A stretch of 64,000 nt of DNA from an uncultured Clostridium sp. (GTDB taxonomy: Bacteria > Bacillota_I > Bacilli_A > RF39 > UBA660), in contig CAMKPE010000005.1 in the NCBI GenBank assembly GCA_946414595.1, positions 704 to 64,703 of the forward strand. The letters are read 5' to 3'. Below, piece by piece: positions 14,334-34,927 of the stretch (the first letter of the stretch is position 1; every line of letters starts with the position of its first letter). The position numbers and the translations under genes were made by a program. Below the pieces are notes generated by a model, which worked only from the letters and a program-made list of their open reading frames with translations, did not search any database and had not been told where the DNA came from.

Positions 14334-14339
14334 CATAAA

Positions 14340-15162: not shown

Positions 15163-15328
15163 AATAATAACGATTATATGGATAATAAGGATATGGATAA
15201 TAGTAAACTGGATATGGAACATATCTATTGTTATTATTAGCCCATAAACTACCAACAACTCCTCCTAGTACGAAAGGTACAATTGGGAAAGAATTACCTC
15301 CATTAAAATGATTAAATCTAGGATTCAT
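15161..15328 (-). CDS. 55-aa Tyr/Pro-rich small protein (absent from the ORF track)
   Basis: My own translation: MNPRFNHFNGGNSFPIVPFVLGGVVGSLWANNNNRYVPYPVYYYPYPYYPYNRYY*. ATG at 15328-15326 is preceded by AGGAGG (plus-strand cctcct 15334-15339) with a 5-nt spacer. TAA is at 15163-15161 and abuts the terminator. Confidence 0.65.
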   Translation of the reverse strand: MNPRFNHFNGGNSFPIVPFVLGGVVGSLWANNNNRYVPYPVYYYPYPYYPYNRYY

Positions 15329-15361
15329 AAATACCTCCTAAAGTATTTTATGAATCATTTT

Positions 15362-16249
15362 TTATTTTGTTCTTAATCTATAGAAATTAATGCTTGGATG
15401 ATTCAATAATCTAAATGGATAATATGAATTACCTAAACCGCCAGAAATATATAAATCTATACCATCTATTATATAGTGAGATGAAACGTATTTCTTAGCT
15501 CCTTCTTTTTTAATAACAGGTCCAATTAAAGGTAATATTATTTGACCGTTATGTGAGTGACCTGCAATGATTAAGCCTGGTTCATAATCTTCAACAATAT
15601 TATCAGCTAAATCAGGTTTGTGAATTACTGCAATAGAGTAGTTAGCATCACTAAGAGCAACTTCTTCTTTTACATAAGTTTCGTCAACTGCAATTAAGTT
15701 TATTGTTGAATTACCAATATATAACTTTTCTACTTTATTATCTAATATAGTGAAATTAGAATTATCGAAGATATCTTTAAAGTCATCAAAATCTTCTTCC
15801 CCTCTAATAGCATATTTACCAATAGTACTATTAATTCTATTAAATTCACTCATAATACTTTCTTTATCTTCGTTATCGATAATATAATCTTTATCTATTA
15901 AATCACCTGTAAATATTACAATGTCAGGGTTAGTTTCATTAATTAAATTAACTAGCTTTGTAATATCACTAATAGAAGTATATTGATTATAGTGAATATC
16001 AGAGAATTGAATAACTTTAATACCATTTAATTCTTCATTAATATTTTCACTATAAATAGGATATTCTCTTACTACAATACCAATGTTTCCAATATATCTT
16101 AAACATGAATAAGATATTGTGAAAATAAGAAATAAAGGAATAAATATCCATAGAAGTATTTTAAATACTTTTTTACTTTTTTGTTTTCTTTCTTCTTCTA
16201 ATATCTCTTCGGCAATTTCAGAGTTTTTTTCAGTTCTTGACTCAGTCAT
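15362..16249 (-). CDS. Membrane-anchored calcineurin-like metallophosphoesterase (YkuE/YaeI type)
   Basis: QFSDIHYN, FTGDLID, GEEDF and GHSHNGQ metallophosphatase motifs, with an N-terminal TM helix. Confidence 0.8.
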   Translation of the reverse strand: MTESRTEKNSEIAEEILEEERKQKSKKVFKILLWIFIPLFLIFTISYSCLRYIGNIGIVVREYPIYSENINEELNGIKVIQFSDIHYNQYTSISDITKLVNLINETNPDIVIFTGDLIDKDYIIDNEDKESIMSEFNRINSTIGKYAIRGEEDFDDFKDIFDNSNFTILDNKVEKLYIGNSTINLIAVDETYVKEEVALSDANYSIAVIHKPDLADNIVEDYEPGLIIAGHSHNGQIILPLIGPVIKKEGAKKYVSSHYIIDGIDLYISGGLGNSYYPFRLLNHPSINFYRLRTK

Positions 16250-16975
16250 TTAAATCAATCCTTTCGATAAAATATAAAGTAAAACTAAAGCACCATTGTG
16301 TATCATATGTATAAATATAGTTGAGAAGATGTTATCAGTTTTATAATAAATTATTCCAAAACATATTCCTAAACTGCAATATGGAATTAAATATAATAGG
16401 CCAAGTAAAGATGTACTTAAAGTTGATATAACATGTATAGCACCAAATACAATACCTGAAGTTAAAATGAAAGGCCATTTGCTTGGCATCGCATCTTTAA
16501 AAGATTTTCTAAATACCAACTCTTCAATAAAAGGTGCACAAAACGTTGTTATTATTAAGGCTAAAATTGGTGAACTAGTGATTATATTATTAACACTTTC
16601 TTGGTTAGTTGCCATCTCTAGTGAAGTAAACTTTGCAATTAAAATATTACTTGTTGCCATAATAGCAAGACCAATAACCCAATACTTAATTGCAATATCA
16701 GATATTTCTCCAAATTTATGAATAAATTCTTTAAAGTCTTTAGCAATTGTTTTTCTATAGAAGATAATTAACATAGCCCCGAATGTAATGTCTGCTAAAA
16801 GTTTTAAAAATAAAGATAAATCATCACTTATGTTTAAAATAATTTCTTCGTTTTTATAAATAATATCTATACCAATCATCTTTGCATACAAAAGTTGCAA
16901 TAATGGATATATATAGAAAAGAAGGAAGATTATTCCTAAAATTATAATATTTTTGTATTTTCTTTTGATGTCCAT
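16250..16975 (-). CDS. CPBP-family intramembrane glutamic endopeptidase (CAAX protease-like)
   Basis: Polytopic, with the EELVFRK and FGAIH ... HMIHN motifs characteristic of CPBP/Abi proteins. Confidence 0.8.
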   Translation of the reverse strand: MDIKRKYKNIIILGIIFLLFYIYPLLQLLYAKMIGIDIIYKNEEIILNISDDLSLFLKLLADITFGAMLIIFYRKTIAKDFKEFIHKFGEISDIAIKYWVIGLAIMATSNILIAKFTSLEMATNQESVNNIITSSPILALIITTFCAPFIEELVFRKSFKDAMPSKWPFILTSGIVFGAIHVISTLSTSLLGLLYLIPYCSLGICFGIIYYKTDNIFSTIFIHMIHNGALVLLYILSKGLI

Positions 16976-17102
16976 AACTCCTCCTTAATATACAATTTAA
17001 TTTTAAATGTTTAAAAATTATGTGTCAACCAATTTCATATTAATGTATTATTAGATATAAAAATAATGTATAATAGAATATATAAGAGGATGGTGTATAA
17101 GA

Positions 17103-18413
17103 ATGAAATACTACTGTTTAGGAATTAAAGGAGCTGGAATGGCTACCTTAGCAAATATATTATACGATTTAGGAAATGAAGTTGTTGGATACGATGATGT
17201 ATTAGATCATAAATTTACTGAAGAAGGATTAGATAAAAGAGGTATAAAAATATATCACGATAATACGCATCCTTTAGATAAAGATATGATACTTACACAT
17301 TCTGTAGCACTTAAAGAAGATCATAAAGAAATAGTAAGAGCAAAAAAAGCAGGATTACAAGTTAAGAAATATAATGAAATTCTTGGTGATATTACAAATA
17401 TGTTTGAATCTATTTGTATATCAGGTACTCATGGTAAGACAACAACATCAACAATGATTACTCAAATACTAGATGCAATATATAAAGTTAATTACTTCAT
17501 TGGTGATGGAACTGGATATGCTAATAAAGATAATAAATACTTTGTTATTGAGTCCGATGAATTCAATAGACATTTCTTGGCATATCATCCTTCATATACA
17601 GTAATTACTAATATAGAACTTGAGCATACAGAAATATATAGAGATATTGAAGATATTAGGGAAACATTCGAGAAGTTTGCTAACAAGACTAAAAATGTTG
17701 TAGTAGCATGCGGAGATAATGAAAATATAAGAATGTTAAAACTAAATCCTAAAACAATCTATTATGGATTTAACGAAGATAATGATGTATGTGCTAAAAA
17801 TGTTACTCTAAGTGAAGCAGGATCAGAATTTGATTTATATGTAGATAAGGAATTAAAAGGACATTTCCATTTACCATTATTTGGAAAACATATGGTATTA
17901 AATGCATTAGCAGCAATTACAATATGTCATTTAAATGGAGTAAGTTACGAGAAGATAAATGAATTACTAGGAAACTTTCATAATGCTAAGAGAAGATTTG
18001 CTATTGAAAATGTTAAAGATAATGTAATAATTGATGATTATGCACATCATCCAACAGAAATCAAAGTAACACTTGAAGCAGCAAGACAAAAATATCCTAA
18101 TAAAGAATTAGTAGCAGTATTTAAGCCAAATACATATTCAAGAACAGAAAAGTTCTATAAAGAATTTGCAGATGCTTTGAATATTGCAGATAAAGTATAT
18201 TTAACTGAGATTGATTGTAATAGAGAAAAACCTGAAGACTATGGCAATGTTACATCAAAGAAGATATTTGATTTATTAAATAATGGAAGTATGATTAGTG
18301 ATGCTGAAGCAGATAAATTATTAAATCATAATAATGCAGCAATATGCTTTATGAGTTGTGCATCAATCGCACATTTAAAAGATGATTATATAAATAAATT
18401 AAAAAATAGTTAA
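17103..18413 (+). CDS. murC: UDP-N-acetylmuramate--L-alanine ligase MurC
   Basis: GIKGAGM N-terminus, the GTHGKTTTS P-loop and DDYAHHPTEI. Confidence 0.9.
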   Translation: MKYYCLGIKGAGMATLANILYDLGNEVVGYDDVLDHKFTEEGLDKRGIKIYHDNTHPLDKDMILTHSVALKEDHKEIVRAKKAGLQVKKYNEILGDITNMFESICISGTHGKTTTSTMITQILDAIYKVNYFIGDGTGYANKDNKYFVIESDEFNRHFLAYHPSYTVITNIELEHTEIYRDIEDIRETFEKFANKTKNVVVACGDNENIRMLKLNPKTIYYGFNEDNDVCAKNVTLSEAGSEFDLYVDKELKGHFHLPLFGKHMVLNALAAITICHLNGVSYEKINELLGNFHNAKRRFAIENVKDNVIIDDYAHHPTEIKVTLEAARQKYPNKELVAVFKPNTYSRTEKFYKEFADALNIADKVYLTEIDCNREKPEDYGNVTSKKIFDLLNNGSMISDAEADKLLNHNNAAICFMSCASIAHLKDDYINKLKNS

Positions 18414-22444: not shown

Positions 22445-22457
22445 ATCCTCTTTTTTT
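22431..22457. terminator. Bidirectional terminator
   Basis: Stem aagaggat/atcctctt followed by T7, between convergent genes. Confidence 0.7.
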
Positions 22458-23364
22458 ATTTTACAAATTCTGTGTATACTGTTTCATCAAAGTGGTGTTG
22501 ATCATCATTTTGTTTTCTTAATTCTTCTGTTGTTATTAGGAAGTATGTATCATCTACAATATCTTCACCAGTTGATACAATTGGGTCATCCCATGTAAGA
22601 TCTAAGTGATACCATTTACCATCTAGATATACGGCATTCCATACGTGATTTTCACTTGATATTTTATAATTTGGTATATCGAAGTAATTTAAGAATATTG
22701 CCATTGCATCAGCATAACCACTACATATACCATAGCCTTGGAATAATACTCCATAAGCTGTATTAGATAAATAATTTATTTTATTATTATCAGTTCTTTC
22801 TTTATCATACTTTGTATGAGAAATTATATAGTCATGTATTATTTTAATTATCTTTCTTTGATCTTTTGTATCTTTAACTTCAGATTCAACTATTTCATTT
22901 ACTTTTTCATTTAATAATTCAATTTCACGATCCGTATAAGTTTTCGTAATTACTAAGTTAACTCTCCCTAATGAATCATAAATTGTTTCTACTGTATCAA
23001 AACTATTATATGGATGAACATATCCATTAACTGTAGATAATAGAGTAGGATTATTAGCAAGTTCCTTTACATCTTCAATACAGTAATCATAACTATCAGG
23101 ACAATAGAAATCGAATGTTTCGTTTCCACTATTAATTATCGTATAGTAAAGATTAAGTAAGTCTTGTTTATTATTTATATCAAAATCATTAACATTTTGT
23201 ACATAATCAAAGTCATATTTAACGTAGTAGCTATTGGCATACTCTAAAGATACTGTCTGCATCTTTACTACATTACTTATTATGAATTTGGCTATTACTG
23301 TTTTATTTAGGTATACTCCAACGAGTATTGATAATAAAAAAATTAAACCAATGATCTTTTTCAT
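22456..23364 (-). CDS. Transglutaminase-like cysteine-protease-fold protein, N-terminally anchored
   Basis: The core GICSGYADAMAIF ... HVWNAVYLDGKWYHLDLTWDD (Cys-His-Asp) is typical of transglutaminase-like domains. Confidence 0.75.
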   Translation of the reverse strand: MKKIIGLIFLLSILVGVYLNKTVIAKFIISNVVKMQTVSLEYANSYYVKYDFDYVQNVNDFDINNKQDLLNLYYTIINSGNETFDFYCPDSYDYCIEDVKELANNPTLLSTVNGYVHPYNSFDTVETIYDSLGRVNLVITKTYTDREIELLNEKVNEIVESEVKDTKDQRKIIKIIHDYIISHTKYDKERTDNNKINYLSNTAYGVLFQGYGICSGYADAMAIFLNYFDIPNYKISSENHVWNAVYLDGKWYHLDLTWDDPIVSTGEDIVDDTYFLITTEELRKQNDDQHHFDETVYTEFVK

Positions 23365-23680: not shown

Positions 23681-23781
23681 AGTATCACCTCTCTTTTTTT
23701 GACTACATATATATTAACAAAAAAATAGATAAAATGCAAATAAAACTTAAAAATATAGAGAAAATAATAATGGTGATACAC

Positions 23782-24594
23782 ATGCATAAGATTAATATTG
23801 AAAAGTTTAACACTAGATGTGACTTAATAAAAGACTCAAGTAAAGATATAAAAGAGCTTAATTGTAAGAAAATTAGGAAAGATAATATAGTTATTGAAAG
23901 GATAGAAATAGATAACAAATTATCAAGAATAGTAAATAAAAGAAAAGGTAATTATGTATCTATTTTATTTGATGATATAACTGATTATGATAATAGAAGA
24001 AAGGTTATAGATATTACTACTAATGAGTTAAGAAGAATGTTAAAGATAAATAACGTATTAAACAAAAAAGTATTAGTAGTAGGTCTAGGTAATTGCTTAT
24101 CAACTCCTGATTCACTAGGCCCTAAAACAATTGACAATGTAATAGTAACAAGGCACTTATTTGAAATATCAAAAGTAGATAATAAATATAATGTAGTAGC
24201 AAAATTATCTCCAGGAGTATATGCAAGTACTGGTATTGAAACATTTGATATTATTAAAGGAATAATTAATAGAATAGATATTGATTACTTAATTGTAGTT
24301 GATTCATTATTATCAACCTCTAAAACTCATATAAATAAATTAATTCAGATTACTGATTCTGGAATAGATCCTGGAAGTGGAGTAGAAAACCAAAGAAAAG
24401 AATTAACTAAAAAGACTTTAAATAAACCCGTTATAGCAATAGGAATACCTACTGTTATAGATATTAAAACATTTACAAATAATAAAGATGATAATTTAAT
24501 TGTTACTCCTAAAGAAATAGATTTTGTAATTGATAAGTTGTCTATAATACTTTCTAAATCAATTAATAATTCAGTACACAATCTGACAAATTAA
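23782..24594 (+). CDS. gpr: Spore germination protease GPR
   Basis: VGLGNCLSTPDSLGP and DSGIDPGSGVENQR motifs. The N-terminus MHKINIEKFNTRCDL parallels the GPR ...RTDLA start. The rpsT/gpr/spoIIP order matches Bacillus. Confidence 0.85.
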   Translation: MHKINIEKFNTRCDLIKDSSKDIKELNCKKIRKDNIVIERIEIDNKLSRIVNKRKGNYVSILFDDITDYDNRRKVIDITTNELRRMLKINNVLNKKVLVVGLGNCLSTPDSLGPKTIDNVIVTRHLFEISKVDNKYNVVAKLSPGVYASTGIETFDIIKGIINRIDIDYLIVVDSLLSTSKTHINKLIQITDSGIDPGSGVENQRKELTKKTLNKPVIAIGIPTVIDIKTFTNNKDDNLIVTPKEIDFVIDKLSIILSKSINNSVHNLTN

Positions 24595-24630
24595 GACATA
24601 TAGAGTTACTATAATTATCTTGGTGATTAA

Positions 24631-25518
24631 ATGAAAAAGAGAATCATTAAGATAATTATTTTTTTAATTGTAATAATACTTTCTTTTGTAATAACGCTTA
24701 AATATTTAAGTTCTATAAATATAGTATTAGATGAAGAATTAATAGATATATTACTTGAAGAAAGTGAAAATACTAACTTTGAAAATAGACTAGTTAATAA
24801 CTTAGTTAAACAAATAACTTCTTCTAAATATATTAATCCAGTGGGATACGTTTTAAATACTTATGATGTAGATAATACTACTCCTGTAGTACTTGAAACC
24901 AAAGAAATAAAACCAACTGTATATATTTATAATACTCATGAAAATGAGAAGTATAGTTCAACTAAAGAGATTAATATAAATTATTCTGTTAAAGATGCAA
25001 GTAGATATTTGAAAGAAAAACTTAAGACTTATAACATTTATTCAATTGTAGAAGAAGGAAGCATTACTGATGTTTTAAATACCAACAATTGGAATTATGC
25101 AAGTTCATATAAAGTCTCGAGAATGTACTTAGATAAAGCACAAAAGAATAATAAAGATCTAGTCTTTTATGTAGATATACATAGGGATTCAGTCAGTAAA
25201 AGTATAAGTACTATAAAAATAGATGAAAAAAAATATGCTAGAACTATGTTCCTTTTAGGATTAGAAAACCCTAATTATAAAGAAAATCAAGTAGTTATGG
25301 AATCTCTTGAGACATGGTTAAACATAAATTACAAAGGATTAAGTAGAGGAATATATAAAAAACAAGGTAAAGGAGTCAATGGAGTATATAATCAAGACTT
25401 TTCACCTAACTGTATCTTAATCGAAGTAGGAGGTGAAGAAAATACTTATGATGAAGTAGTGAATACAATGGATGTAATTGCAGAAATGCTTTATGAATAT
25501 ATGAAAGAGGACTTATGA
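24631..25518 (+). CDS. spoIIP: Stage II sporulation protein P
   Basis: N-terminal TM helix with the IYNTHENEKY and DIHRDS motifs, positioned after gpr. Confidence 0.85.
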   Translation: MKKRIIKIIIFLIVIILSFVITLKYLSSINIVLDEELIDILLEESENTNFENRLVNNLVKQITSSKYINPVGYVLNTYDVDNTTPVVLETKEIKPTVYIYNTHENEKYSSTKEININYSVKDASRYLKEKLKTYNIYSIVEEGSITDVLNTNNWNYASSYKVSRMYLDKAQKNNKDLVFYVDIHRDSVSKSISTIKIDEKKYARTMFLLGLENPNYKENQVVMESLETWLNINYKGLSRGIYKKQGKGVNGVYNQDFSPNCILIEVGGEENTYDEVVNTMDVIAEMLYEYMKEDL

Positions 25519-25817
25519 AAAATAAAATAATTAAATATGTATTATTATCAGTAGTATTCATCTTTTTAATACTTTATTTCTTTGGAGGAAGAATATATGA
25601 TTATAAGTTAACAGAGAAGAAAGTATTAACAGAAGAACAAATAAAGAAGTTTGAAGAAGATGTTAAAAATGGTATAGAAATAGATATAAATGACTACATA
25701 ATAAAAGACAAAGACTATAGCAATAGCATAACTAAGATTAATGGAGAAATATCAAATATAATTGAACTGGGATTTAAAAAAGTATTTGAACAGATTCTTA
25801 ATAATATTAATGTTTGA
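25515..25817 (+). CDS. Small N-terminally anchored protein (possibly YqxA-like, by position only)
   Basis: ATGA overlap with spoIIP and one TM helix. The YqxA suggestion rests only on its position after spoIIP. Confidence 0.4.
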   Translation: MKNKIIKYVLLSVVFIFLILYFFGGRIYDYKLTEKKVLTEEQIKKFEEDVKNGIEIDINDYIIKDKDYSNSITKINGEISNIIELGFKKVFEQILNNINV

Positions 25818-25858
25818 AAATAATTAAGACAATGATATAATTATCTATGAGGTAGTTT

Positions 25859-26197
25859 ATGGATAGTTATAGTTTAGATGAAGTAAAAATGCTTATAGAA
25901 AAAAACTTGCTAACTGGTGAAATATTAAAGAATATTTTAACTAGTTGTACAAGAAGAATAGAGCTATATGATAATAGTGAATCACTAGATATATTAAAGT
26001 ATCTTAAAGATGCTTCTTGTGTTCCTGATGAAACTAAAGAAGAACTATCTAAATTCTTATCTGAGTATGATAACTCCAAGATGGAAGAAGATTCCTCACA
26101 AAAAATTAAAGAAGAAATAAGTAATTGGAAGATTATACTACTTTATGGATTAGTTATTACTCTTATAGTAGTAGGTCTAGCATTCTACTTTTTATAG
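25859..26197 (+). CDS. Tail-anchored small membrane protein, unknown function
   Basis: GAGGT SD, an acidic soluble part and a C-terminal TM helix (IILLYGLVITLIVVGLAFYFL). Confidence 0.5.
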   Translation: MDSYSLDEVKMLIEKNLLTGEILKNILTSCTRRIELYDNSESLDILKYLKDASCVPDETKEELSKFLSEYDNSKMEEDSSQKIKEEISNWKIILLYGLVITLIVVGLAFYFL

Positions 26198-26206
26198 GTG
26201 AATAAT

Positions 26207-26473
26207 ATGAGCGTAAGAATTTCAAATGATGAGAATATAGCAAACTTAAAGAAAAGAAAAATACTAAGATACTTTATGATATTTTTTGATGCTTTAACAC
26301 TTGTTTTAGCAGTTTTATGTTTAGTATTTGGTATAAGTTTTATTTTCCCATTAATTACATACATAATTGCAGTTATACTAGCTAATATTAGGAAAAAGAC
26401 AATTATCAATAAACCTAATGATATTTATGAAGTAGAAGTTGAACTTGAAAAAGCAAAGAAACGTAAAAAATAG
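26207..26473 (+). CDS. Small two-TM membrane protein, unknown function
   Basis: AGGTG SD precedes ATG 26207. Two hydrophobic helices and a K-rich tail. Confidence 0.5.
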   Translation: MSVRISNDENIANLKKRKILRYFMIFFDALTLVLAVLCLVFGISFIFPLITYIIAVILANIRKKTIINKPNDIYEVEVELEKAKKRKK

Positions 26474-26475
26474 TC

Positions 26476-26504
26476 TTTTAAAGGCTGTTTTTTTTTGTTA
26501 TAAT
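26476..26504 (+). promoter_or_regulatory. Putative sigma-A promoter (extended -10) of the WXG/effector operon
   Basis: TGtTATAAT at 26496-26504. The -35 is poor (ttttaa). Confidence 0.35.
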
Positions 26505-26539
26505 AAAATGTAGTATATAAATAAGATAGGAGTGAAAGT

Positions 26540-27454
26540 ATGGCTCTAGAAATTACTTATAATTCAGATGAAATACATGAACTAGAAACCACTTTAGAGA
26601 ATCAAGAAAAGATTTTAGGCGACAATATGAAACAATCTCTAGCAAGTAATTTTGACTCTTTAACAGCAATTGGATTTGGAGGAATTAATAAACTTCAAAG
26701 TCAAACTGATTCGTTAATAACTAGTCATAGTTCATTTATAAAAGAATTAAAAGAACATGATGAAAATAAAATTGAGTTGGAAAATGCTATTAACACTGCT
26801 ATAAAAGCAAAACTTGATAATAACGAATATGAAGAAGCAAATGATGCTTCACAAACTCATGAATTAAATGATGTAGTTTTACAAGAAGTAAATGAAGGAC
26901 AAGAAATAAATACAGAAATGTTAACAGAAGCAGTAAAAGAGTTCTCATATACTGCTAAAGCTGCAATGTTACAAAATATATTAAATCTAGATGTTGGATC
27001 TTTGACATCTCTTTTAACAGATACAAATAAATCAAATATCTTAGTATACGAAATAAGACAAATGTTAAATGATGAAACAACTGACTTATCAAGAGCAGCT
27101 ACTAAAGGTGAAAAAGAAGTTCAAAAAGAATTCATTAGATCTTTAGCAAAAGAAACAAGTAATATCTTTAAAGAAGTTGATGAGAATACTTTCTTAAGAG
27201 GAATACCTTATTACAAAAAAATTTCAGAATTAAATGGAATAAATATAGAAGATTTATTATTAGATGATAAAAACAAGAAATTATTAACTGACTGCGTTAA
27301 ATTCGTATGTGAACATAATGCTGTTAATGGTATTGATGATAGTGATATTGCTGCAGTAAAAGCATACGTTAATGAAGTAGCAAACAAACATAAATTATCA
27401 ACAAGAGAATTATTAACAAGTTCTAACGCACAACTATTGAAAGAGGGTGTGTAA
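26540..27454 (+). CDS. Module 1 lead protein (304 aa, soluble, helical), paralogue of 29460-30368
   Basis: AGGAGTG SD. The N-terminal stretch NFDSLTAIGFGGINKLQSQTDSLITS parallels NFEALSKAGLYTNGLSKIKQQIEYVSS in the paralogue. Confidence 0.6.
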   Translation: MALEITYNSDEIHELETTLENQEKILGDNMKQSLASNFDSLTAIGFGGINKLQSQTDSLITSHSSFIKELKEHDENKIELENAINTAIKAKLDNNEYEEANDASQTHELNDVVLQEVNEGQEINTEMLTEAVKEFSYTAKAAMLQNILNLDVGSLTSLLTDTNKSNILVYEIRQMLNDETTDLSRAATKGEKEVQKEFIRSLAKETSNIFKEVDENTFLRGIPYYKKISELNGINIEDLLLDDKNKKLLTDCVKFVCEHNAVNGIDDSDIAAVKAYVNEVANKHKLSTRELLTSSNAQLLKEGV

Positions 27455-27455
27455 G

Positions 27456-27755
27456 ATGAAACTACAAGCTAAATATGATGATATAGATAAATTAGGTATA
27501 GAGATAAATAATAAAAAAGAAGAGATAGATAATATCTTAAAGAATATTGAAAAAATGCTTGATGAAGTAGAAACAGCATGGACTGGAACAGATAGTGATA
27601 CATATGTTAAAGGTACTAAAGAAATAATAGATGCAGAAAAAGCAAGAGCAGAAAAGATTAGATTAATAAGTGATGCATTAAGATACTCTGCAGCGAAGTA
27701 TAAAAATAATGATGAAGAAGGATCTTCAACTTTCAAAAATGAGGAGATTAACTAA
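27456..27755 (+). CDS. WXG100-family (EsxA-like) small helical protein, module 1
   Basis: 99 aa with a central W-x-G (VETAWTGTDSDTY) between two predicted helices. GAGGGTG SD. Confidence 0.7.
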   Translation: MKLQAKYDDIDKLGIEINNKKEEIDNILKNIEKMLDEVETAWTGTDSDTYVKGTKEIIDAEKARAEKIRLISDALRYSAAKYKNNDEEGSSTFKNEEIN

Positions 27756-28081
27756 TGAATAACTTACAGTTTGATCAAGCAAAACTACAAGATATTCTTA
27801 ATAATTTAGAAAAGAATATAGAAGATTTAAAAAGTACCTATAATGAAATAGCAAAAGAAATGACTGTTATAGATGGGACAAACGATATATGGAAAAGCGA
27901 TACCCAAAAAACAGTACATGAATATTATAAAGAAGTAGAAAAAGACTTCGAAGAAAGCGTACAAAACTTAAATAATTGTAAAGAATTTTTAAAAGCAACT
28001 ATAGATAACTATAGTAATAGTATTGCATCTAATCAAAAGAATGCAGAAGATAGTGGAGATAGCTTAGAAATAAATAATTAA
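27755..28081 (+). CDS. Second small helical WXG100-like/Lap-like partner protein, module 1
   Basis: 108 aa with central DIWKSDTQK. TAATG coupling to the previous gene. Confidence 0.6.
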   Translation: MNNLQFDQAKLQDILNNLEKNIEDLKSTYNEIAKEMTVIDGTNDIWKSDTQKTVHEYYKEVEKDFEESVQNLNNCKEFLKATIDNYSNSIASNQKNAEDSGDSLEINN

Positions 28082-28095
28082 GGAGGTGTGTTATT

Positions 28096-29448
28096 ATGTC
28101 ACAACATTATAAAGAATCATATAAAACTTATTATGAAAAATTAACTGCACACTCTCCAGATACAGACACTATTGAAGAAAAAGTACTAGAACTAGATGAG
28201 AATGCTAAGAAACTTGAAAGTGAAATAAGTGGATTTACTTGGAAAGAATTAGCAAGAGATGAAGTTAAAAATAGTATTATTCCTAGATTAAATAGTAGAG
28301 TATCAGTTTATTTAGAAAATATAAATAATCATTTATTGCCAGCAGCTTACAAAGCAAATAATGAATTATATCCACTTCTTAAAGACATTAAAACTAAGAG
28401 TGAAGAATATGATGCATTATTTAATGAAATAGAAGCAAATAGTGAAAATGATGTTGATACATCTAGTCTTAAAGAAAAGTTAACTACTTTAGATCAAGAG
28501 ATGAATCAAATATCAACTGATATTGATAAAGTAGTTAATGAAATTAAATCACTTGGAGACTTAAAAGAATTAGAAGGAAGTAGTGTAGTTGAAAACATAA
28601 CAAAAAATGAAGTACCAACTACACCAGCACAAGAGAATAATAGTTATATAGAAACATTTAACTATGATAATAGAGACTTCCCTAATATAGAAACAAATAG
28701 TGTTTATGTAGCAGATGAACCTTTATCAGATGAAGCTGCAGCTGAAACAAAGAAAAAGATTAGAACTAGAAAGAAATGTATTATTGGAACAGATATAGTA
28801 GAAGAGTTCTTAAAGATAAAAAGAAGACTTGATAAAGAAAGACAAAGTGAAGAATTACCTGCTGTTCCAATTAAGTCATCTTCTACATTTGATTTTTCAA
28901 ATAATAATAATGTTAAGAAATGGTCTGGTTTTAATAAGGATTGGGTTGTTGTTGATACAACATTTGCAATTGACAAGTATCAATCTTATGCTTACAGTAA
29001 AGGAATAAGACAAGATAGTAATGCTGGAAGATATGGAGATTTATGTTTGGCGTTTAGTTATGTTCATGCATCAAACTTAAAAAGCGGATCAACTGGTGAT
29101 ACTGCAGAATCAGCATTTAACTGGGATCATGCAGGAGAATTTAAAGATTATTTTTCCAATAGTAAAGGTGATACATTATCAACTATCTATAATGAAGTAA
29201 CAAAAGGAAATCCAGTAATATTACAAGTTAATGGTAATAAAGAAGGAACACATAGACATTTTGTTACTGTAGTAGGATTTAAAAATACAGTAACAGATGC
29301 TAGTAAATTAAAAGAATCTGACTTATTAATATTAGATAGTTGGGATGGACAACTTGAAACAATGGATAGTAGTAGCTCTAGATTTATGACAACTGGAGCA
29401 CAAACAAATAAGAGTTACAGTGGGTATTATTTAAGAATATGTAAATAG
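28096..29448 (+). CDS. Putative polymorphic effector: helical LXG/WXG-like N-terminus plus C-terminal papain-fold Cys-His-Asp domain, module 1
   Basis: AAGGAGGTG SD. The N-terminus has YKTYYEKL...FTWKELARDEV...LLP. The C-terminus has GDLCLAFS (Cys317, nt 29044-29046), RHFVTVVGF and LILDSWDG. Confidence 0.65.
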   Translation: MSQHYKESYKTYYEKLTAHSPDTDTIEEKVLELDENAKKLESEISGFTWKELARDEVKNSIIPRLNSRVSVYLENINNHLLPAAYKANNELYPLLKDIKTKSEEYDALFNEIEANSENDVDTSSLKEKLTTLDQEMNQISTDIDKVVNEIKSLGDLKELEGSSVVENITKNEVPTTPAQENNSYIETFNYDNRDFPNIETNSVYVADEPLSDEAAAETKKKIRTRKKCIIGTDIVEEFLKIKRRLDKERQSEELPAVPIKSSSTFDFSNNNNVKKWSGFNKDWVVVDTTFAIDKYQSYAYSKGIRQDSNAGRYGDLCLAFSYVHASNLKSGSTGDTAESAFNWDHAGEFKDYFSNSKGDTLSTIYNEVTKGNPVILQVNGNKEGTHRHFVTVVGFKNTVTDASKLKESDLLILDSWDGQLETMDSSSSRFMTTGAQTNKSYSGYYLRICK

Positions 29449-29459
29449 TGGAGGAAAAC

Positions 29460-30368
29460 ATGGCTATAAGAAAAAACACAGTTTCAATTGATAGTGATAC
29501 GTTAAATAGTGTTGTTAGTAATTTGAATAGTTCAGCAAGCACTCTAGAAAGTGATGTAGGATCAAAATTACCAGGTAATTTTGAAGCATTATCTAAAGCA
29601 GGGCTATACACAAATGGACTATCAAAAATTAAACAACAAATTGAATACGTTTCATCAATGGAAAAAGAATTAGCTAGTGATGTATCTAAGCATCTTGACG
29701 AATCTGTAGATACAGAAGAAGAACTTACAAATAAATTTAAAACCCACGGAAAATATGATGCCGATAATGGGCATAATGGTGGTAACAACCATGATTCAGG
29801 AGATAATTCTGATAACCAAGTTGACGATGGAAAGAAAGTTAATAGCACAAAACTAATGGATAACATTAAAGCAATTGATGCTACTAATGTAGAAAAACTA
29901 GTTAACTTTATTAATGTATACAAAGAAAAAGATTCACTTGTATCACTAATCTTTAACCATGAAAAATCTCAAAAGCTAGGTAATATAATTTTGAAAGCAT
30001 TTGGATATGAAGAATTCTCAAGTATTACCGAAAGCGAATATAAAGAAATACAAAAGACTTTAATAGATAAATTATTTGAACAAGAAACAATACCAACAAA
30101 ATTACAATATAATACGATACTTTCTGCAAAAGAATATTTAGTACAAGTAGCACAAAAGAATAATATTAAGGTAAGTGAACTTCTTGTTGAAGATAAACAT
30201 GAGAATATATTAAGAGAATCATTAAAGAATTTATATGCTGGTAATGTAAAAGACTATAATGTATCTGAACAAACAGTAAGTAGCTTTAGAACATATATAG
30301 ATGGAATTGCTAGTGATAATAATATTACTTATGATAAAGTGTTTGATAATTTAAAACTATTGTTTTAG
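29460..30368 (+). CDS. Module 2 lead protein (302 aa), paralogue of 26540-27454
   Basis: GGAGGA SD precedes ATG 29460. Same size and N-terminal pattern as 26540-27454. Confidence 0.6.
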   Translation: MAIRKNTVSIDSDTLNSVVSNLNSSASTLESDVGSKLPGNFEALSKAGLYTNGLSKIKQQIEYVSSMEKELASDVSKHLDESVDTEEELTNKFKTHGKYDADNGHNGGNNHDSGDNSDNQVDDGKKVNSTKLMDNIKAIDATNVEKLVNFINVYKEKDSLVSLIFNHEKSQKLGNIILKAFGYEEFSSITESEYKEIQKTLIDKLFEQETIPTKLQYNTILSAKEYLVQVAQKNNIKVSELLVEDKHENILRESLKNLYAGNVKDYNVSEQTVSSFRTYIDGIASDNNITYDKVFDNLKLLF

Positions 30369-30377
30369 GAGGCATCT

Positions 30378-30707
30378 ATGATATTTAAAGTTGATTATGA
30401 TTATGTAGATGAAACAGGTAAAAATGTTTTAACAGAAGTAAATAAACTTGAAACAAATAGACAGAACTTATTAACATACCTAGATGAACTTGGTGAGTCT
30501 TGGTCTGGCTCTGACTATGATGAGTTTAAAGAAAATGCTAAAACATATATTGATAATTTAAAAATAAAATTTGAAGAATTAGAATACATGTCTGGTTTTA
30601 TGAGATATGCTTCTAAAAGGTATTCAAATAATGATGATAAATGGGCTGATAAACTTAAAGAATATAGAAATAAGGATGAAGAAAAATGGCTATTGGAAAC
30701 CAAATAA
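30378..30707 (+). CDS. WXG100-family small helical protein, module 2
   Basis: 109 aa with GESWSGSDYDEF centrally placed. TAGGAGG SD. Confidence 0.7.
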   Translation: MIFKVDYDYVDETGKNVLTEVNKLETNRQNLLTYLDELGESWSGSDYDEFKENAKTYIDNLKIKFEELEYMSGFMRYASKRYSNNDDKWADKLKEYRNKDEEKWLLETK

Positions 30708-31012
30708 AAGCAACTGAATTCGAAGAAACAAAAAATAAGTTTATCAAAGCCACACAAGAAATTGAATCATCTTTAAAAAGAATAGAAGAATTAATGAAGC
30801 CTATAGATGGAAATAATGAAAATTGGTCTGGTAAGACAGCTAAAGCAGTAGTAGAGAAGTATGCTGAGTTTAGAGATAATTTTGATGAAATAAACTCTAA
30901 GTTAGCAGATTACGGAAGTTATCTAAATAAAACATTAGAAAATTATACAAATGCTATGGCAAAGAGTGAAGCTACAATAGCAATAACAGAAGATAATTTT
31001 AACGTAAGTTAG
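30686..31012 (+). CDS. Second small helical WXG100-like/Lap-like partner protein, module 2
   Basis: 108 aa with NENWSGKTAKAV. 22-nt overlap with the preceding gene. Confidence 0.6.
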   Translation: MAIGNQIKATEFEETKNKFIKATQEIESSLKRIEELMKPIDGNNENWSGKTAKAVVEKYAEFRDNFDEINSKLADYGSYLNKTLENYTNAMAKSEATIAITEDNFNVS

Positions 31013-31031
31013 AATAAGTTGGGAGGAGCAT

Positions 31032-32219
31032 ATGGCAACATATTTTATAGATCCATATACAAAATATTATGATGCTTTAAAAGGTGCACAAATAATCGCT
31101 TCAGAAAGTGAAGCAATGGCATCTAAAGTATCTGATAGCATGAGTTCAGTTGATCGATTATCCTCAATCGTATCAACATCTGATTGGAAAGAAAAAGGTG
31201 CAACAGAATTAACAAGCACAACTATTTCTAATCTAAAAGGATGTATACAAACAATTGAGAATAATATAACTAATTCTTTAAAAGCAGCATGTGATATTGC
31301 CATAAATAGTCTGCTTCCAGAATTAGAAGGTTTAAAAACTGAAGATGAAACATATGACGCTGTTACTACTGAATTAAATAATTTAGTTGTACCAATGCAA
31401 TATGATGATGAAGGGTATATAACAAGCGCATATCTAGAATATAAAGATACAAAGAGTAGATTAACAAGTGAACAAAATAGAGCAAAGACAAAGTGCATTG
31501 AACATCAAACTAATGCTAGAACATACGCTGATCAAGTAAAAGCAAAAGATGGGGCTCTAGAAGAAATTAAGCAAAAAGTTTCAACAGGAGGCGGAGGTAC
31601 TGGTACTCTTACAGTTCTTGATTATGATGCAAATAGTAATTTAATTAAAGTATCATACAATGGACAAGAGTTCTATGTAGTAAATACTAAGACTTCTGTT
31701 ATAGAATATGAAGAATATGTTCAAAAGAATAAATGTACTCAAAATGGTGGTATTCTAGGTGGAGAATGTATGCTTTTATCACAATATTATGCAGTAGACT
31801 TATTAAGAGGAACATTTACATCAAGAGATGATATGGCACAAGCAAAAGGTTCTCCAGCAACACGAATTAACGATTATGTTAGTTCACCTGATGAGGATGA
31901 TGTTTTAGAGTATATATATACTGAGGCATTAGCAGGAAGACCAACTGTATTACAAGTTACTCAAGTTAGATCTGACGAAGGTTTAAGACACTTAGTTACA
32001 GTAGTAGGTTTTGATTCAAGTGTAAAAAGTTATAAAGACCTAACACCAGATAATATATTGGTTTTAGACTGTGTTGATGGTAAGATTCAAACATTAGGAC
32101 AAGCAAGAGCTGAAGGTGGTCATGCTAGAAGTCTATTTGCACAAGGTGGTAAATACTTTGCAAGAGGTGCAACAGATGGCTTCTTAAGCAAAGAGGTATA
32201 TACTACAAAGAACGCATAA
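31032..32219 (+). CDS. Putative polymorphic effector, module 2 (helical N-terminus plus papain-fold C-terminal domain)
   Basis: GGGAGGAG SD. YTKYYDAL...SDWKEKGATEL...LLP at the N-terminus. GGECMLLS (Cys246, nt 31767-31769), RHLVTVVGF and LVLDCVDG are colinear with the 28096-29448 product. Confidence 0.65.
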   Translation: MATYFIDPYTKYYDALKGAQIIASESEAMASKVSDSMSSVDRLSSIVSTSDWKEKGATELTSTTISNLKGCIQTIENNITNSLKAACDIAINSLLPELEGLKTEDETYDAVTTELNNLVVPMQYDDEGYITSAYLEYKDTKSRLTSEQNRAKTKCIEHQTNARTYADQVKAKDGALEEIKQKVSTGGGGTGTLTVLDYDANSNLIKVSYNGQEFYVVNTKTSVIEYEEYVQKNKCTQNGGILGGECMLLSQYYAVDLLRGTFTSRDDMAQAKGSPATRINDYVSSPDEDDVLEYIYTEALAGRPTVLQVTQVRSDEGLRHLVTVVGFDSSVKSYKDLTPDNILVLDCVDGKIQTLGQARAEGGHARSLFAQGGKYFARGATDGFLSKEVYTTKNA

Positions 32220-32233
32220 ATATAAATAAATTG

Positions 32234-32262
32234 TTGACTTTTAGAATAAATTATTATATAAT
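32234..32262 (+). promoter_or_regulatory. Sigma-A-type promoter of the infC operon
   Basis: TTGACT(32234-32239)-17 nt-TATAAT(32257-32262). Confidence 0.6.
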
Positions 32263-32268
32263 CAAAAA

Positions 32269-32400
32269 CGTAATAAAAAAGGAAAGAGATGTATCCACAT
32301 CCACCTGATTGCGAAAAGCTTTGGGTAAAATGCCAAGAAGAAACAATAATTACAACGTTTTTATGGTATTAAAAGTGGATATATTATGTCCACTTTTTTA
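32269..32400 (+). promoter_or_regulatory. Ribosomal protein L20-type leader with intrinsic terminator (infC-rpmI-rplT attenuator)
   Basis: A ~130-nt untranslated leader lies between the promoter and infC. It ends in the hairpin aaaagtgga/tccactttt (32371-32397) plus a T-run, just before the infC SD. In Firmicutes this operon is regulated by an L20-binding leader. Confidence 0.55.
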
Positions 32401-32422
32401 TATTTTATTGGAGGTGTTTTAT

Positions 32423-32953
32423 ATAGCAAACTCAAAAAATGATTTGTTAATAAATGAACAAATCAAAGTTCCACAAGTTTTAGTAATTGGTCCCAATGGG
32501 GAACAAACAGGTGTTAAGTCAATTAATGACGCATTAACACTAGCAAATTATGCAAGTTTGGATTTAGTATTAATAGGTCCAAATGGTAATCCACCAGTAT
32601 GTAAGCTAATGGATTACAAAAAGTATAAGTATGAAAAGAATAAAAGGGAGAAAGACGCTCTTAAGAAACAAAGAGCATCTATGCAAGAGGTTAAAGAATT
32701 TAGATTGTCTCCATCTATTGATGTAGGTGATTTTGAAACCAAAGTAAAACAAGTTACTAAGTACCTTGAAAAAGGTGACAAGATAAAAGTAACTATTCGT
32801 TTTAAAGGAAGACAAATGGCTCATACAGAATTAGGGAGCGATGTTTTAGTGCGCTTTGCAGAAAGACTAAAAGACATCTCTGAAATCGAATCTCAACCAA
32901 AACTTGATGGAAGAAATATGATTATGTTATTAATGCCAAAGAAAACAAAGTAG
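32423..32953 (+). CDS. infC: Translation initiation factor IF-3
   Basis: INEQIKVPQVLVIGPNGEQTGV...LDLVLI...PPVCKLMDYKKYKYE are IF-3 hallmarks. GGAGGTG (32410-32416) is followed by an in-frame ATA at 32423, and IF-3 genes classically use AUU/AUA starts. The ORF-track extension back to 32309 is leader RNA. Confidence 0.85.
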   Translation: MANSKNDLLINEQIKVPQVLVIGPNGEQTGVKSINDALTLANYASLDLVLIGPNGNPPVCKLMDYKKYKYEKNKREKDALKKQRASMQEVKEFRLSPSIDVGDFETKVKQVTKYLEKGDKIKVTIRFKGRQMAHTELGSDVLVRFAERLKDISEIESQPKLDGRNMIMLLMPKKTK

Positions 32954-32965
32954 GAGGAATATACG

Positions 32966-33154
32966 ATGGGTAAAGTAAAAAAACATAAAGGATTAAGTAA
33001 AGTTCTTAAAGTTAGAAAATCTGGAACTATTACATTACGTCCAACTGGATTAAATCATAAAACAGGAAAGAAAAGTGGAGCTGTAAATAGAGCTAAGAGA
33101 AAGAATGCTCAATTAAGTAAGGCAGACTTCAAGAGATTAAAGAAAGTTATCTAA
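32966..33154 (+). CDS. rpmI: 50S ribosomal protein L35
   Basis: Basic 62-aa protein (MGKVKKHKGLSKVLKV...DFKRLKKVI). Confidence 0.9.
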   Translation: MGKVKKHKGLSKVLKVRKSGTITLRPTGLNHKTGKKSGAVNRAKRKNAQLSKADFKRLKKVI

Positions 33155-33169
33155 TAAGGAGGAGTTAAA

Positions 33170-33778
33170 ATGGCAAGAGTAAAGAATAGTGTAACAACAA
33201 GAGCACGTCATAAAAAAGTTCTTAAAGCTGCTAAAGGATACTTTGGAAGCAAACATAGATTATATAAGACTGCTAAAGAACAATTAATGCATTCTGGACA
33301 ATATGCATTTAGAGACAGACGTCAAAAGAAAAGAGATTTTAGAAAATTATGGATTACAAGAATTAACGCTGCATGTCGTGAAAACGAAATCAGTTATTCT
33401 AGATTCATTGAAGGATTAAACAAAGCTGGAGTTGAAGTTAACAGAAAGATGTTATCTGAAATAGCTATCGCTGATCCAAAAGCATTTGCAGAATTAGTTA
33501 AAACTGCTAAGAATGGATTAGAAGGAAAAGTTAAAGCAGCTAAAGTTGAAAGCAAAAAAGAAGTTGAAGTTGTAAAAGCAACTAAGGCTAAAGCAGAAAA
33601 GAAAGAAACTGCTAAAGAAGAAAAAGAGGAAAAACCAGTTAAAAAAGCAGCAGCACCTAAGAAGGCAGCAGCTACTAAAAAAGAAGAAAAAATAGAAGAA
33701 AAAGCACCTGCTAAAAAAGCACCTGCAAAGAAAACTACAACAGCTAAGAAAACAACTACAAAAAAAGAAACTAAATAA
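33170..33778 (+). CDS. rplT: 50S ribosomal protein L20 with an ~84-aa K/A/E/T-rich C-terminal extension
   Basis: The first ~118 aa form a canonical L20 core ([19 protein letters not shown]...RINAACRE...). The protein then continues to 202 aa with AKK/KKE/TTKK low-complexity sequence. Confidence 0.9.
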
Positions 33779-33865
33779 GCATATTAATGGATTTAATTAC
33801 CTAGTGCCAGTTTGGTGGTATTATTAGAAATTAATAGAAGATAAAAACGAAAAGGAGAAAGTATT

Positions 33866-34927
33866 ATGACAGTAGTGTCAATGAATTATTTATTAGAAGC
33901 AGGAGTTCACTTCGGACATCAAAAGAGAAGATGGAACCCAAAAATGAAGGAGTATATTTATACTTCAAGAGATGATATTTATATTATCGACTTACAAAAA
34001 ACTCAAAAGAAGATTGAAGAAGCTTATGAAGCAATGAAAGAGATTGCAGCAAATGAAGGAAAAATCTTATTTGTTGGAACTAAGAAACAAGCTCAAGAAG
34101 CTGCAGAAGAAAGTGCTACAAGAACTAACATGTATTTCGTAAATGAAAGATGGTTAGGTGGAACACTTACTAACTTCAAGACAATTAGATCAAGAATCAA
34201 AAGATTAGATGAAATCGAAAAGATGGAAGCTGACGGAACTTTTGATAAATATGAAAAGAAAGAAGTTATTAAATTCAAGAAGGAATACGAAAAGTTAAAT
34301 AAGAACTTAAGAGGAATCAGAGAAATGAAGAAACTTCCTGATGCTCTAGTAATCGTAGATCCAAGAAAAGAAGAAATAGCTATTAAAGAAGCAAGAAAGT
34401 TAAACATTCCAGTATTTGGAGTTGTAGATACTAACTGTGACCCAGATATGGTTGATTATGTTATTCCAGGAAATGACGATGCTGTAAGAAGTGTTAAATT
34501 AATGATTGGAGCACTTACTAACGCTATCGCTGAAGTAAATGGAAACGAAATAATCGATTATGTTACTGAAGAAGATAAAAACAAGGCAGCAGGAAAAGGA
34601 AAGAAAGATGACGTTAATGAATTCGTTGAATCTCTAGAAAGAGAAATCAAAGTTGAAAAAGACGACATTGATTCTGAAGAAAAAATAGAAAAGTCTAAGA
34701 AACCTGCAAAGAAAGCTAAAGTAGAAGAAAAAGAAGAAGTTAAGGAAGAACCTAAGAAAGAAAAGAAACCAGCTAAAGAAAAAGCTGTAAAAGAAGAAAA
34801 AGTTGAAGAAAAGAAAGATTATTCAGCTATGACTTTAACTGAATTAAAGGAAGCAGCTAAAGAACAAGGAATCAAAGGTTATTCTAAAATGAAAAAAGAA
34901 GAACTTGTTAAAGAATTAAGTAAATAA
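33866..34927 (+). CDS. rpsB: 30S ribosomal protein S2 with a ~120-aa charged C-terminal extension ending in a Rho_N/HeH-like motif
   Basis: The [27 protein letters not shown] core is S2. The protein is 353 aa, against ~235-260 aa typically. The tail ends [32 protein letters not shown]. Confidence 0.9.

Follow-up and report, generated by a model that had tools for sequence, protein, structure and literature searches.

Two proteins encoded on the forward strand of a 64,000-nucleotide (nt) stretch of AT-rich DNA (G+C ~27%) from an uncultured Clostridium sp. (contig CAMKPE010000005.1; the whole stretch is hereafter referred to as the window) were analysed, each being the last product of one of two tandem four-gene cassettes and here called effector 1 and effector 2. 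The last ~185 residues of both would form a papain-fold cysteine hydrolase with a glutamine for the oxyanion hole and a catalytic triad (Q306/C317/H388/D414 in effector 1, Q237/C246/H320/D346 in effector 2), and profile matches indicate that this domain is a divergent subfamily within the C39_2/BtrH-like branch of clan CA. With a little more confidence than doubt it is proposed that the effectors are modular secreted enzymes, in which the C39_2-like head would cut the cell wall outside the cytoplasm after type VII-like export, hence the lack of an immunity gene. They represent an uncharacterised enzyme family and not a new kind of system.

The domain shared by the two effectors

An earlier note on this DNA had aligned six motifs from the ends of the two proteins, and both open reading frames (ORFs) and all six motifs were found where it had placed them: GDLCLAFSYVHA (amino acids, aa, 314-325), NPVILQVNGNKEGTHRHFVTVVGF (aa 372-395) and DLLILDSWDGQ (aa 409-419) in effector 1 and GGECMLLSQYYA (aa 243-254), RPTVLQVTQVRSDEGLRHLVTVVGF (aa 303-327) and NILVLDCVDGK (aa 341-351) in effector 2, with Cys317 and Cys246 both encoded by TGT at the expected codons (29044-29046 and 31767-31769). 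The colinearity of the two C-termini, also claimed there, was confirmed by BLASTP of the full-length proteins (E=1e-19). When compared alone, the C-terminal domains were 33% identical across 164 aa (E=8e-22). Their Smith-Waterman score was 186 against 31.9 +/- 5.0 for 500 shuffles (z=31), and the similarity is therefore far above chance. The shared domain, correctly recognised in the note, extends beyond the last ~150 aa assigned to it, starting at aa ~264-273 (nt ~28885) in effector 1 and aa ~203 (nt ~31638) in effector 2, and it includes a conserved beta-hairpin and, ahead of the Cys, an invariant Gln not mentioned in the note. Homology was also found between the first ~115 aa of effectors 1 and 2 (BLASTP, E=6e-11), and thus the entire proteins are paralogous, beyond their C-termini.

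A comparison with Pfam placed effector 1 just above the gathering cut-off of PF13529 Peptidase_C39_2 (26.2 bits for the full-length protein and 26.8 for the domain alone, cut-off 24), the match being confined to that half of the model which holds the His and Asp (positions ~56-133 of its 143). Among 28 diverse family members 24 matched PF13529 at E<=0.1, the best at 3.4e-7, and two each showed weak BtrH_N matches (found also in protein P0008) or a stray Amidase_6 match (E=0.016). Effector 2 alone gave no match to PF13529 at E<=1, yet its domain is homologous to that of effector 1 as described above. The suggestion of the earlier note that the domain may be undescribed is too strong, since an existing Pfam model reaches it and C39-like toxin and lysin domains have already been described. 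An exhaustive profile search revealed 655 representative clusters at E<=1e-3, 141 of them at E<=1e-30, in which the domain is nearly always C-terminal, and in the genomes that were fetched the family occurs in uncultured gut and rumen Bacilli, Mollicutes-like bacteria and Saccharibacteria.

To the effector 1 domain 16 close homologues were found and to that of effector 2 128. In an alignment of 99 sequences the residues Tyr32, Gln43, Cys54, Gly108, Arg124, His125, Val127, Thr128, Gly131, Asp151 and Asp154 (domain numbering) are invariant, and the Gln, Cys, Arg-His and Asp..Asp positions are invariant also across 28 domain-only sequences. Gln43/Cys54/His125/Asp151/Asp154 correspond to Q306/C317/H388/D414/D417 in effector 1 and to Q237/C246/H320/D346/D349 in effector 2. 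A further alignment of 16 full-length sequences (A6) shows D346 as invariant and D349 as nearly invariant, and the third residue of the triad is therefore more likely to be D414/D346.

The earlier note had read these residues as a papain-fold Cys-His-Asp arrangement and proposed a structure prediction followed by a fold search as a check, and for the effector 1 domain the prediction spoke for this reading. In an AlphaFold2 model built from the 99-sequence alignment (pLDDT, predicted local distance difference test, 95.7; predicted template modelling (TM) score, pTM, 0.92) Cys54 is the first residue of the helix 54-67 with Gln43 lying 11 residues upstream, His125 opens the strand 124-133, Asp151 ends the next strand 147-151 and Asp154 is located in the turn after it. 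The model thereby puts the Cys, His and Asp at the canonical papain positions and the Gln at the place of the oxyanion hole; the predicted fold and triad are supported by conservation and modelling together, and the informative matches in the fold search, weak as they were, are papain-like.

Domain partners and putative export

The N-terminal parts to which the C39_2-like head was found attached are of four kinds at least. The first comprises signal-less helical WXG/LXG-like domains, as in the window proteins and their relatives, and the second a module like A1 and A2, the proteins heading the two cassettes (Table 1), fused straight to the head (loci L005-L008). In the third kind, seen in 36 of 122 representatives, the protein starts with a signal peptide or membrane anchor and in some cases (P0260, P0203, P0225) then carries Big_2, LRR or surface Ig-like domains. 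In the fourth the head is joined to other hydrolase domains, namely Peptidase_M23 (L015, P0223, P0229), SLT with esterase-type matches (P0236) and Glucosaminidase (P0258). A 321-aa protein with a different head shares the N-terminal domain of effector 2 (E=9e-11), and a word-indexed search with the N-terminal profile gave one further protein only.

An exchange of heads is seen at locus L001, where six genes have a common ~120-aa N-terminal domain (54-58% identity, 43 invariant columns) followed by a C39-like head (P0022), Phage_lysozyme2 (E=2e-35), Glucosaminidase (6e-14), NAGPA phosphodiester glycosidase (3e-11), an esterase/S9-like alpha/beta hydrolase (3e-8) and one unknown head. This set is possibly a battery of type VII-style exported cell-envelope hydrolases, and no evident immunity-like genes were found in it. 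It is situated at 5061-14310 of contig NODE_1_length_498879 (sample ERZ12302816), with WXG100 genes interspersed.

In a Saccharibacteria genome the protein combining M23 with the head is encoded next to a second M23 protein, a lysozyme, a VirB4-like ATPase and a member of the PrgI family. The cluster looks like a type IV secretion-like locus equipped with hydrolases of its own, comparable to the wall hydrolases found alongside type IV secretion in Gram-positive bacteria. The region (L015, positions 162-18189 of JBMNHQ010000001.1, a Candidatus Nanosyncoccaceae metagenome-assembled genome, MAG) encodes three giant proteins with M23, M23 plus the C39-like domain, and Phage_lysozyme2, respectively. 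Since the head is thus swapped with or fused to peptidoglycan glycosidases and endopeptidases, often on proteins reaching beyond the membrane, it is most simply understood as a peptidoglycan peptidase or amidase.

No hydrophobic N-terminal segment was found in either effector. A full-length AlphaFold2 model of effector 2 (pLDDT 86.5) proposed N-terminal helices at aa 21-48, 55-116 and 132-174, a disordered linker (aa 182-200) and the papain-fold domain, and a W-x-E-x-G loop is conserved at aa 52-56. A fold search with this model gave generic helical or BAR-type bundles only (PPE41 at E=0.16) and is uninformative on LXG. Directly upstream of each effector two WXG100-like proteins are encoded, of which W1a, W1b and W2b score above the PF06013 cut-off and W2a slightly below it, and two such small genes are also found beside the effector in L003, L004, L007, L008 and L019. 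In L007 and L008 the gene of the A-like fusion protein is preceded by two ~105-aa genes, giving the W-W-effector order again. The YwqH protein, with which two of the small window proteins share weak profile matches, is encoded beside the LXG toxin YwqJ of B. subtilis. By analogy, a type VII-like export of the effectors is inferred. No FtsK/SpoIIIE-type protein was found in the window; two adjacent ORFs at 3391-5727 (778 aa, a weak HYR match) and 5744-9838 (1364 aa, no Pfam match) are neither of them an EssC-type ATPase.

The favoured explanation would then run as follows. The head would be the peptidase counterpart to the lysozyme and glucosaminidase heads borne by similar carriers, and its substrate would be peptidoglycan, cleaved at an amide or peptide bond of either the stem peptide or the cross-bridge, as suggested by the domain fusions and by the context of the genes and their paralogues. 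Export would depend on the signal-less three-helix WXG/LXG-like N-terminus together with the two upstream WXG100-like proteins, as in the LXG-Lap complexes of type VIIb, and with a substrate beyond the membrane no cytoplasmic immunity protein would be required. The role may be remodelling of the producer's own wall or lysis of neighbours.

A number of observations weigh against this explanation. When the model of the effector 1 domain was compared with the PDB using Foldseek only weak matches were obtained (best E=1.9e-3, probability 0.87, TM ~0.3), mostly papain-like, and these included BpJOS (a Josephin-like clippase), staphopains, CdiA-CT 8ssm, CtaG (an amide synthase) and 9l5u ('papain-like cysteine protease toxin') and further IdeS/Mac-1, phytochelatin synthase, CcbD and bleomycin hydrolase; among these neighbours are proteases of protein substrates and no known peptidoglycan hydrolases. 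Sequence and profile searches of the PDB revealed no papain-like relative, only coiled-coil noise and spurious 3C-protease matches. Neither effector matches NlpC/P60 (PF00877) or CHAP (PF05257) at E<=1, and of the groups named as examples in the earlier note it is the C39-like side that is borne out by the PF13529 scores while these two are not; CHAP appeared at E=0.36 in the viral fold search. Among the IMG/VR viral contigs no relative was found, and the subfamily is no common phage lysin. Pfam LXG (PF04740) is not matched at E<=1 by effector 1 or 2, and no EssC or other type VII core gene was found in the 64-kb window or among the neighbouring genes scanned at the fetched loci. Peptidoglycan-targeting weapons of other systems are usually paired with immunity or wall-modification genes, none of which is found here, and for every member of the family the catalysis is a prediction.

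With the IMG/VR search negative, the idea of a phage lysin was rejected; the sole 'phage' match, a partial one, is an unverified 5.5-kb scaffold, probably bacterial, with ORFs of 246 and 466 aa resembling truA and an aminopeptidase by eye. Also rejected was the idea that the forms anchored by two transmembrane segments (L009-L014) are pilin fusions of a type IV secretion system (T4SS), the match to PF18895 being weak (E=0.0017, below cut-off) and the only context examined (L011) showing priA and a PdaC-like deacetylase and no T4SS genes. A DPBB/3D-like lytic transglycosylase upstream of the head, guessed by eye in P0004, P0006, P0008 and a 379-aa protein of L001, had no Pfam support.

A wider reading is advanced tentatively and with considerable doubt. 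In the small-genome gut and rumen Bacilli clade, WXG/LXG-like domains and a type VII-like exporter may be a routine route for wall hydrolases (lysozyme, glucosaminidase, NAGPA, esterase, cysteine peptidase) without immunity, possibly for turnover of the own wall or for sporulation since gpr-spoIIP immediately precedes the cassette in four genomes (see below), and the C39_2-like head would be an unrecognised class of peptidoglycan endopeptidase or amidase, found also in Saccharibacteria beside a type IV secretion-like cluster.

Immunity, conservation and alternative activities

When the surroundings of the effectors were searched for immunity genes none was found downstream; the genes of the cassettes abut or overlap so that no room is left for another coding sequence, and the promoter-like site and leader of infC follow directly after effector 2. 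Antisense ORFs were considered and are not conserved in L003. The earlier note had argued, conditionally, that an extracellular wall target could explain this lack, and the idea is supported by the fusions with M23, SLT and glucosaminidase, by the forms carrying a signal peptide or membrane anchor and by the swapping of heads. Three small ORFs upstream of cassette 1 (o100, o112 and o91) were rejected as immunity genes, accompanying spoIIP in the four syntenic loci yet being absent near effectors elsewhere. A1 and A2 are related to each other (E=3e-13, ~22% identity) and have no family assignment in Pfam or NCBIfam, and an immunity function is made less likely by the finding that fusion proteins have a homologous carrier part: the first ~185 aa of A1 and A2 match the N-terminal part of proteins that directly carry the C39-like domain in other genomes, among them, for A1, the 465-aa fusion protein of L007 (E=2e-11). 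Head-less substrates or adaptors may describe A1 and A2 better than immunity proteins.

The cassette is located between spoIIP and infC in four related MAGs. In the closest genome, the syntenic MAG RGIG6726 from sheep rumen (L003), the cassette proteins are 51-77% identical (A2 and its orthologue 70%), the sporulation genes and the adjoining three small ORFs 72-80% and the housekeeping genes 87-97%. Two more distant MAGs harbour a single cassette in the order gpr-spoIIP-three small genes-A-W-W-effector-infC, the effector being of type 1 in one and of type 2 in the other, and the position is therefore old and vertically inherited. The tandem pair of the window, with A1 and A2 as dissimilar as described, derives from an ancient duplication. 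The ratios of non-synonymous to synonymous substitution rates (dN/dS) against the RGIG6726 orthologues, approximate since dS is near saturation, are 0.20 for the N-terminal domain, 0.49 for the linker and 0.15 for the C-terminal domain of effector 1, the linker being its fastest-evolving segment, and ~0.20 for the C-terminal domain of effector 2, compared with 0.14 for spoIIP. The conserved position and the purifying selection favour by a small margin a stable physiological role over a rapidly evolving toxin of an arms race; by contrast, the multi-head battery of L001 looks like an arsenal. The label 'toxin' used in the earlier note is consequently not established, and hydrolases of the producer's own wall are equally possible.

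The best surviving alternative, though in itself rather unlikely, is that the effectors are secreted proteases acting on proteins (host or dietary proteins, immunoglobulins, mucins or bacterial surface proteins) in the manner of staphopain or IdeS. Staphopain A/C, IdeS/Mac-1/IdeC and BpJOS, a ubiquitin clippase, are among the best structural neighbours, the Big_2, LRR and surface Ig-like domains of some members are typical of host-facing proteins, all source samples are from gut or rumen and no immunity gene would be needed. The structural scores are however weak and do not discriminate between substrates, and it is wall hydrolases that are typified by repeated fusion to M23, SLT and glucosaminidase and by exchange with heads of the lysozyme and glucosaminidase kinds.

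Classical interbacterial type VII toxins, with a cysteine protease acting in the cytoplasm of the target cell and an immunity gene located elsewhere or represented by the ~305-aa A protein, are considered improbable. For such toxins speak the Foldseek matches to the CdiA-CT/CdiI complex 8ssm and the toxin/immunity pair 9l5u, the LXG/Lap-like layout, the start of A2 at the stop codon of effector 1 (the two share one base) and the predicted C39-like toxin domain Tox-PL-C39 known from polymorphic toxins (PMC3482391). Against them there is no gene between effector 2 and the infC promoter-like site, the antisense ORFs mentioned above lack conservation, and A1 and A2 are homologous to the N-terminal carrier of direct fusions and have no detectable homologue near the effectors of L001, L021 and L023. 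In addition, between a quarter and a third of the members are Sec-exported or membrane-anchored, fitting an extracytoplasmic substrate, and the synteny in four MAGs and the purifying selection point the same way.

An enzyme forming instead of cleaving bonds (an acyltransferase, amide synthase or transglutaminase-like enzyme such as BtrH, CtaG or CcbD), which would modify the envelope or a secreted metabolite, is very improbable. CtaG and CcbD are among the Foldseek matches, the BtrH_N matches point in this direction, and BtrH, CtaG and CcbD use identical Cys-His-Asp chemistry; but no carrier-protein, nonribosomal peptide synthetase/polyketide synthase or other biosynthetic genes are found nearby, the domain is associated with hydrolases and it would act outside the cell, an environment without thioester donors. 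A leader peptidase of the classical C39 type, which would trim bacteriocins or the adjacent small proteins of double-glycine leaders, is scarcely credible, for even if the nearest Pfam family is C39-related and small helical proteins are encoded alongside, there is no match to classical C39 (PF03412) at E<=1, no ABC transporter as fusion partner or neighbour and no double-glycine peptide gene, and the domain is C-terminal on a secreted protein and not N-terminal on a transporter.

Gene layout and relation to known systems

The two cassettes are flanked by the sporulation genes gpr and spoIIP (23734-25518) on the 5' side and by infC-rpmI-rplT (from ~32300) on the 3' side; the features of the region are listed in Table 1. 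The promoter-like site upstream of A1 resembles a sigma-A-type extended -10 promoter, a pattern match from which its function is inferred, and an AGGAG ribosome-binding site is located 7 nt 5' of the A1 ATG at 26540. In effector 1 the N-terminal domain (aa 1-~170) is helical, and a variable linker that bears a basic patch (aa ~171-263) joins it to the C-terminal C39_2-like domain. In the linker (28606-28884) the conserved basic patch is followed by an amphipathic motif, KKKIRTRKKCIIGTDIVEEFLKIKRRLDKE, which recurs in P0003, in the L003 orthologue and, in a weaker form, in L004.

Table 1. Positions of the cassette genes, predicted domains, candidate catalytic residues and putative signals in the window
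Feature	Position	Strand	Description and basis
Promoter-like site, cassette 1	26477..26504	+	TTTAAA, 16 nt, TG-extended TATAAT; consensus scan and direct reading
A1	26540..27454	+	304-aa acidic helical protein, heads cassette 1, paralogue of A2
W1a	27447..27755	+	102 aa, WXG100 family; PF06013 E=2.2e-7, 31.5 bits (cut-off 27.3); TIGR03930 E=1.9e-9
W1b	27755..28081	+	108 aa, WXG100-like/YwqH-like small helical protein; PF06013 27.5 bits (cut-off 27.3); YwqH-like E=5.9e-4
Effector 1	28096..29448	+	450 aa; ORF and alignment with orthologues and with effector 2 and its orthologues
Effector 1, predicted papain-fold C39_2-like catalytic domain	28885..29445	+	aa 264-450; PF13529 E=8.4e-6; AlphaFold2 pLDDT 95.7
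Effector 1, putative catalytic residues	Gln306 29011-29013; Cys317 29044-29046; His388 29257-29259; Asp414 29335-29337	+	invariant columns
Effector 1, second conserved Asp	Asp417 29344-29346	+	invariant columns
A2	29448..30368	+	306-aa acidic helical paralogue of A1, heads cassette 2
W2a	30378..30707	+	109 aa, WXG100-like; PF06013 E=2.1e-5, 25.1 bits, under cut-off 27.3
W2b	30686..31012	+	108 aa, WXG100 family, YwqH-like; PF06013 E=4.2e-11, 43.4 bits; YwqH-like E=3.5e-4; weak LXG E=0.007
Effector 2	31032..32219	+	395 aa; AlphaFold2 full-length model (pLDDT 86.5) and alignments
Effector 2, predicted papain-fold C39_2-like catalytic domain	31638..32201	+	aa ~203-390; 128 homologues; same order of secondary structure as effector 1 domain
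Effector 2, putative catalytic residues	Gln237 31740-31742; Cys246 31767-31769; His320 31989-31991; Asp346 32067-32069	+	invariant in alignment A6
Effector 2, second Asp	Asp349 32076-32078	+	>=90% of alignment A6 sequences
Hairpin and T-run	32371..32397	+	~150 nt 3' of effector 2 stop, in infC leader

The infC promoter-like site (32234-32262) is located upstream of the hairpin at 32371-32397, which may mark the end of cassette transcription or take part in attenuation of infC; an Rfam scan of 25000-34000 revealed no RNA family, including no match at the hairpin and no L20-leader match. The mechanically called infC ORF begins with a TTG at 32309, homology to other infC genes is found only from residue 30 and a GGAGG follows the hairpin with its T-run, and thus the true infC start is probably located further downstream with the hairpin in the leader. 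Between spoIIP and cassette 1 (25515-26473) the ORFs o100, o112 and o91 encode three small predicted membrane proteins of 100, 112 and 91 aa, which have no Pfam family and are kept in all four syntenic MAGs. The ORF o100 overlaps the spoIIP stop and is therefore probably co-transcribed with spoIIP.

Elsewhere in the window, the ribosomal proteins L20 (33170-33778, 202 aa) and S2 (33866-34927, 353 aa) have long Lys/Glu/Ala-rich C-terminal extensions, far longer than in the usual bacterial forms, and the extended forms are conserved in L003 (96% and 89% identity, respectively). On the reverse strand a 302-aa transglutaminase-core protein, also of papain-like fold and with no detected relation to the effector domains, is encoded just upstream of gpr (22456-23364), and at 46963-50008 two ORFs (687 and 329 aa) without Pfam family are located in a stretch with GC skew and AT skew inverted relative to the rest of the window. 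A 506-aa protein with DUF285, a Mycoplasma-type repeat protein, is located at 61805-63325, consistent with a Mollicutes-related Bacilli lineage.

Compared with known systems, the chemistry and fold (clan CA, PF13529), the LXG/Lap-like architecture and predicted C39-like heads in toxins and lysins are already known. The PF13529 family belongs to clan CA, includes the B. anthracis C39-like peptidase and is related to BtrH_N; it shares with the present domain the papain fold and the Gln, Cys, His and Asp in identical order. Members of C39_2 have been described as single-domain peptidases (PMC10318531), whereas here the domain is C-terminal on WXG/LXG-like, membrane-anchored or multi-hydrolase proteins.

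The LXG/Lap systems (TelA-D of S. intermedius, YwqJ/YwqH-I of B. subtilis and EsaD with EsxB/C/D) are alike in that a signal-less elongated helical N-terminus bears an enzymatic head at the C-terminal end and that two genes for WXG100-like proteins of ~100 aa are located directly upstream, some of these small proteins here having the weak YwqH-like matches given in Table 1, and the layout is the one known for LXG toxins accompanied by a pair of Lap helpers (PMC10801868; PMC13492133). They differ in that the effectors here have no Pfam LXG match and are encoded with neither an immunity gene downstream nor a DUF4176 chaperone nor nearby core genes of a type VII secretion system (T7SS), and in the extra ~305-aa helical gene heading each cassette and the vertically conserved housekeeping and sporulation setting. 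The table of characterised LXG toxins in a 2026 review on Lactobacillales contains no cysteine peptidase (PMC13492133).

The CHAP and NlpC/P60 enzymes (autolysins, endolysins, Tae amidases of type VI secretion systems, EssH of the S. aureus T7SS, PrgK/CwlT of conjugation) would share the proposed Cys-His chemistry on a wall amide, and like the present family they are joined with M23, SLT or glucosaminidase domains, are associated with secretion machines (here the Saccharibacteria cluster) and have no cytoplasmic immunity. The family differs from them in lacking a match to PF05257 or PF00877 and in that the nearest structures are of the papain/staphopain/C39 group and not of NlpC/P60. EssH is Sec-exported and not itself of the WXG/LXG type.

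Tox-PL-C39 is likewise a C39-related papain-like peptidase serving as the C-terminal head of secreted multi-domain proteins. It has been described (Zhang et al. 2012) together with Imm-SuFu immunity, a toxin-immunity association for which Bacteroidetes are given (PMC3482391), while the present locus has no immunity gene, the comparison being made by description only. The N5 domain of the mycobacteriophage LysA endolysins, assigned to C39-like peptidase by HHpred (Payne and Hatfull 2012; PMC3314691), shows a C39-like peptidase domain within a modular peptidoglycan hydrolase beside glycosidase or amidase domains, but N5 is phage-encoded and N-terminal, whereas the present subfamily has no relative in IMG/VR. 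PF13529 has also been used as a lysin-associated domain (PMC10541714). With polymorphic toxins the family shares one delivery domain with alternative C-terminal heads, as in the six heads of L001; the paired immunity gene of such toxins was not found here.

A search of the literature revealed no description of a WXG/LXG-carried, wall-directed cysteine peptidase encoded without immunity. If the proposed explanation is true, the effectors would be the first type VII-style substrates with a papain-fold cell-wall peptidase head, as far as could be found, and a function would be given to an uncharacterised family of 655 representative clusters. It would further bear on how type VII substrates cross the thick Gram-positive wall and on whether WXG/LXG export serves housekeeping enzymes besides toxins, and new peptidoglycan hydrolase specificities would be candidates for enzybiotics.

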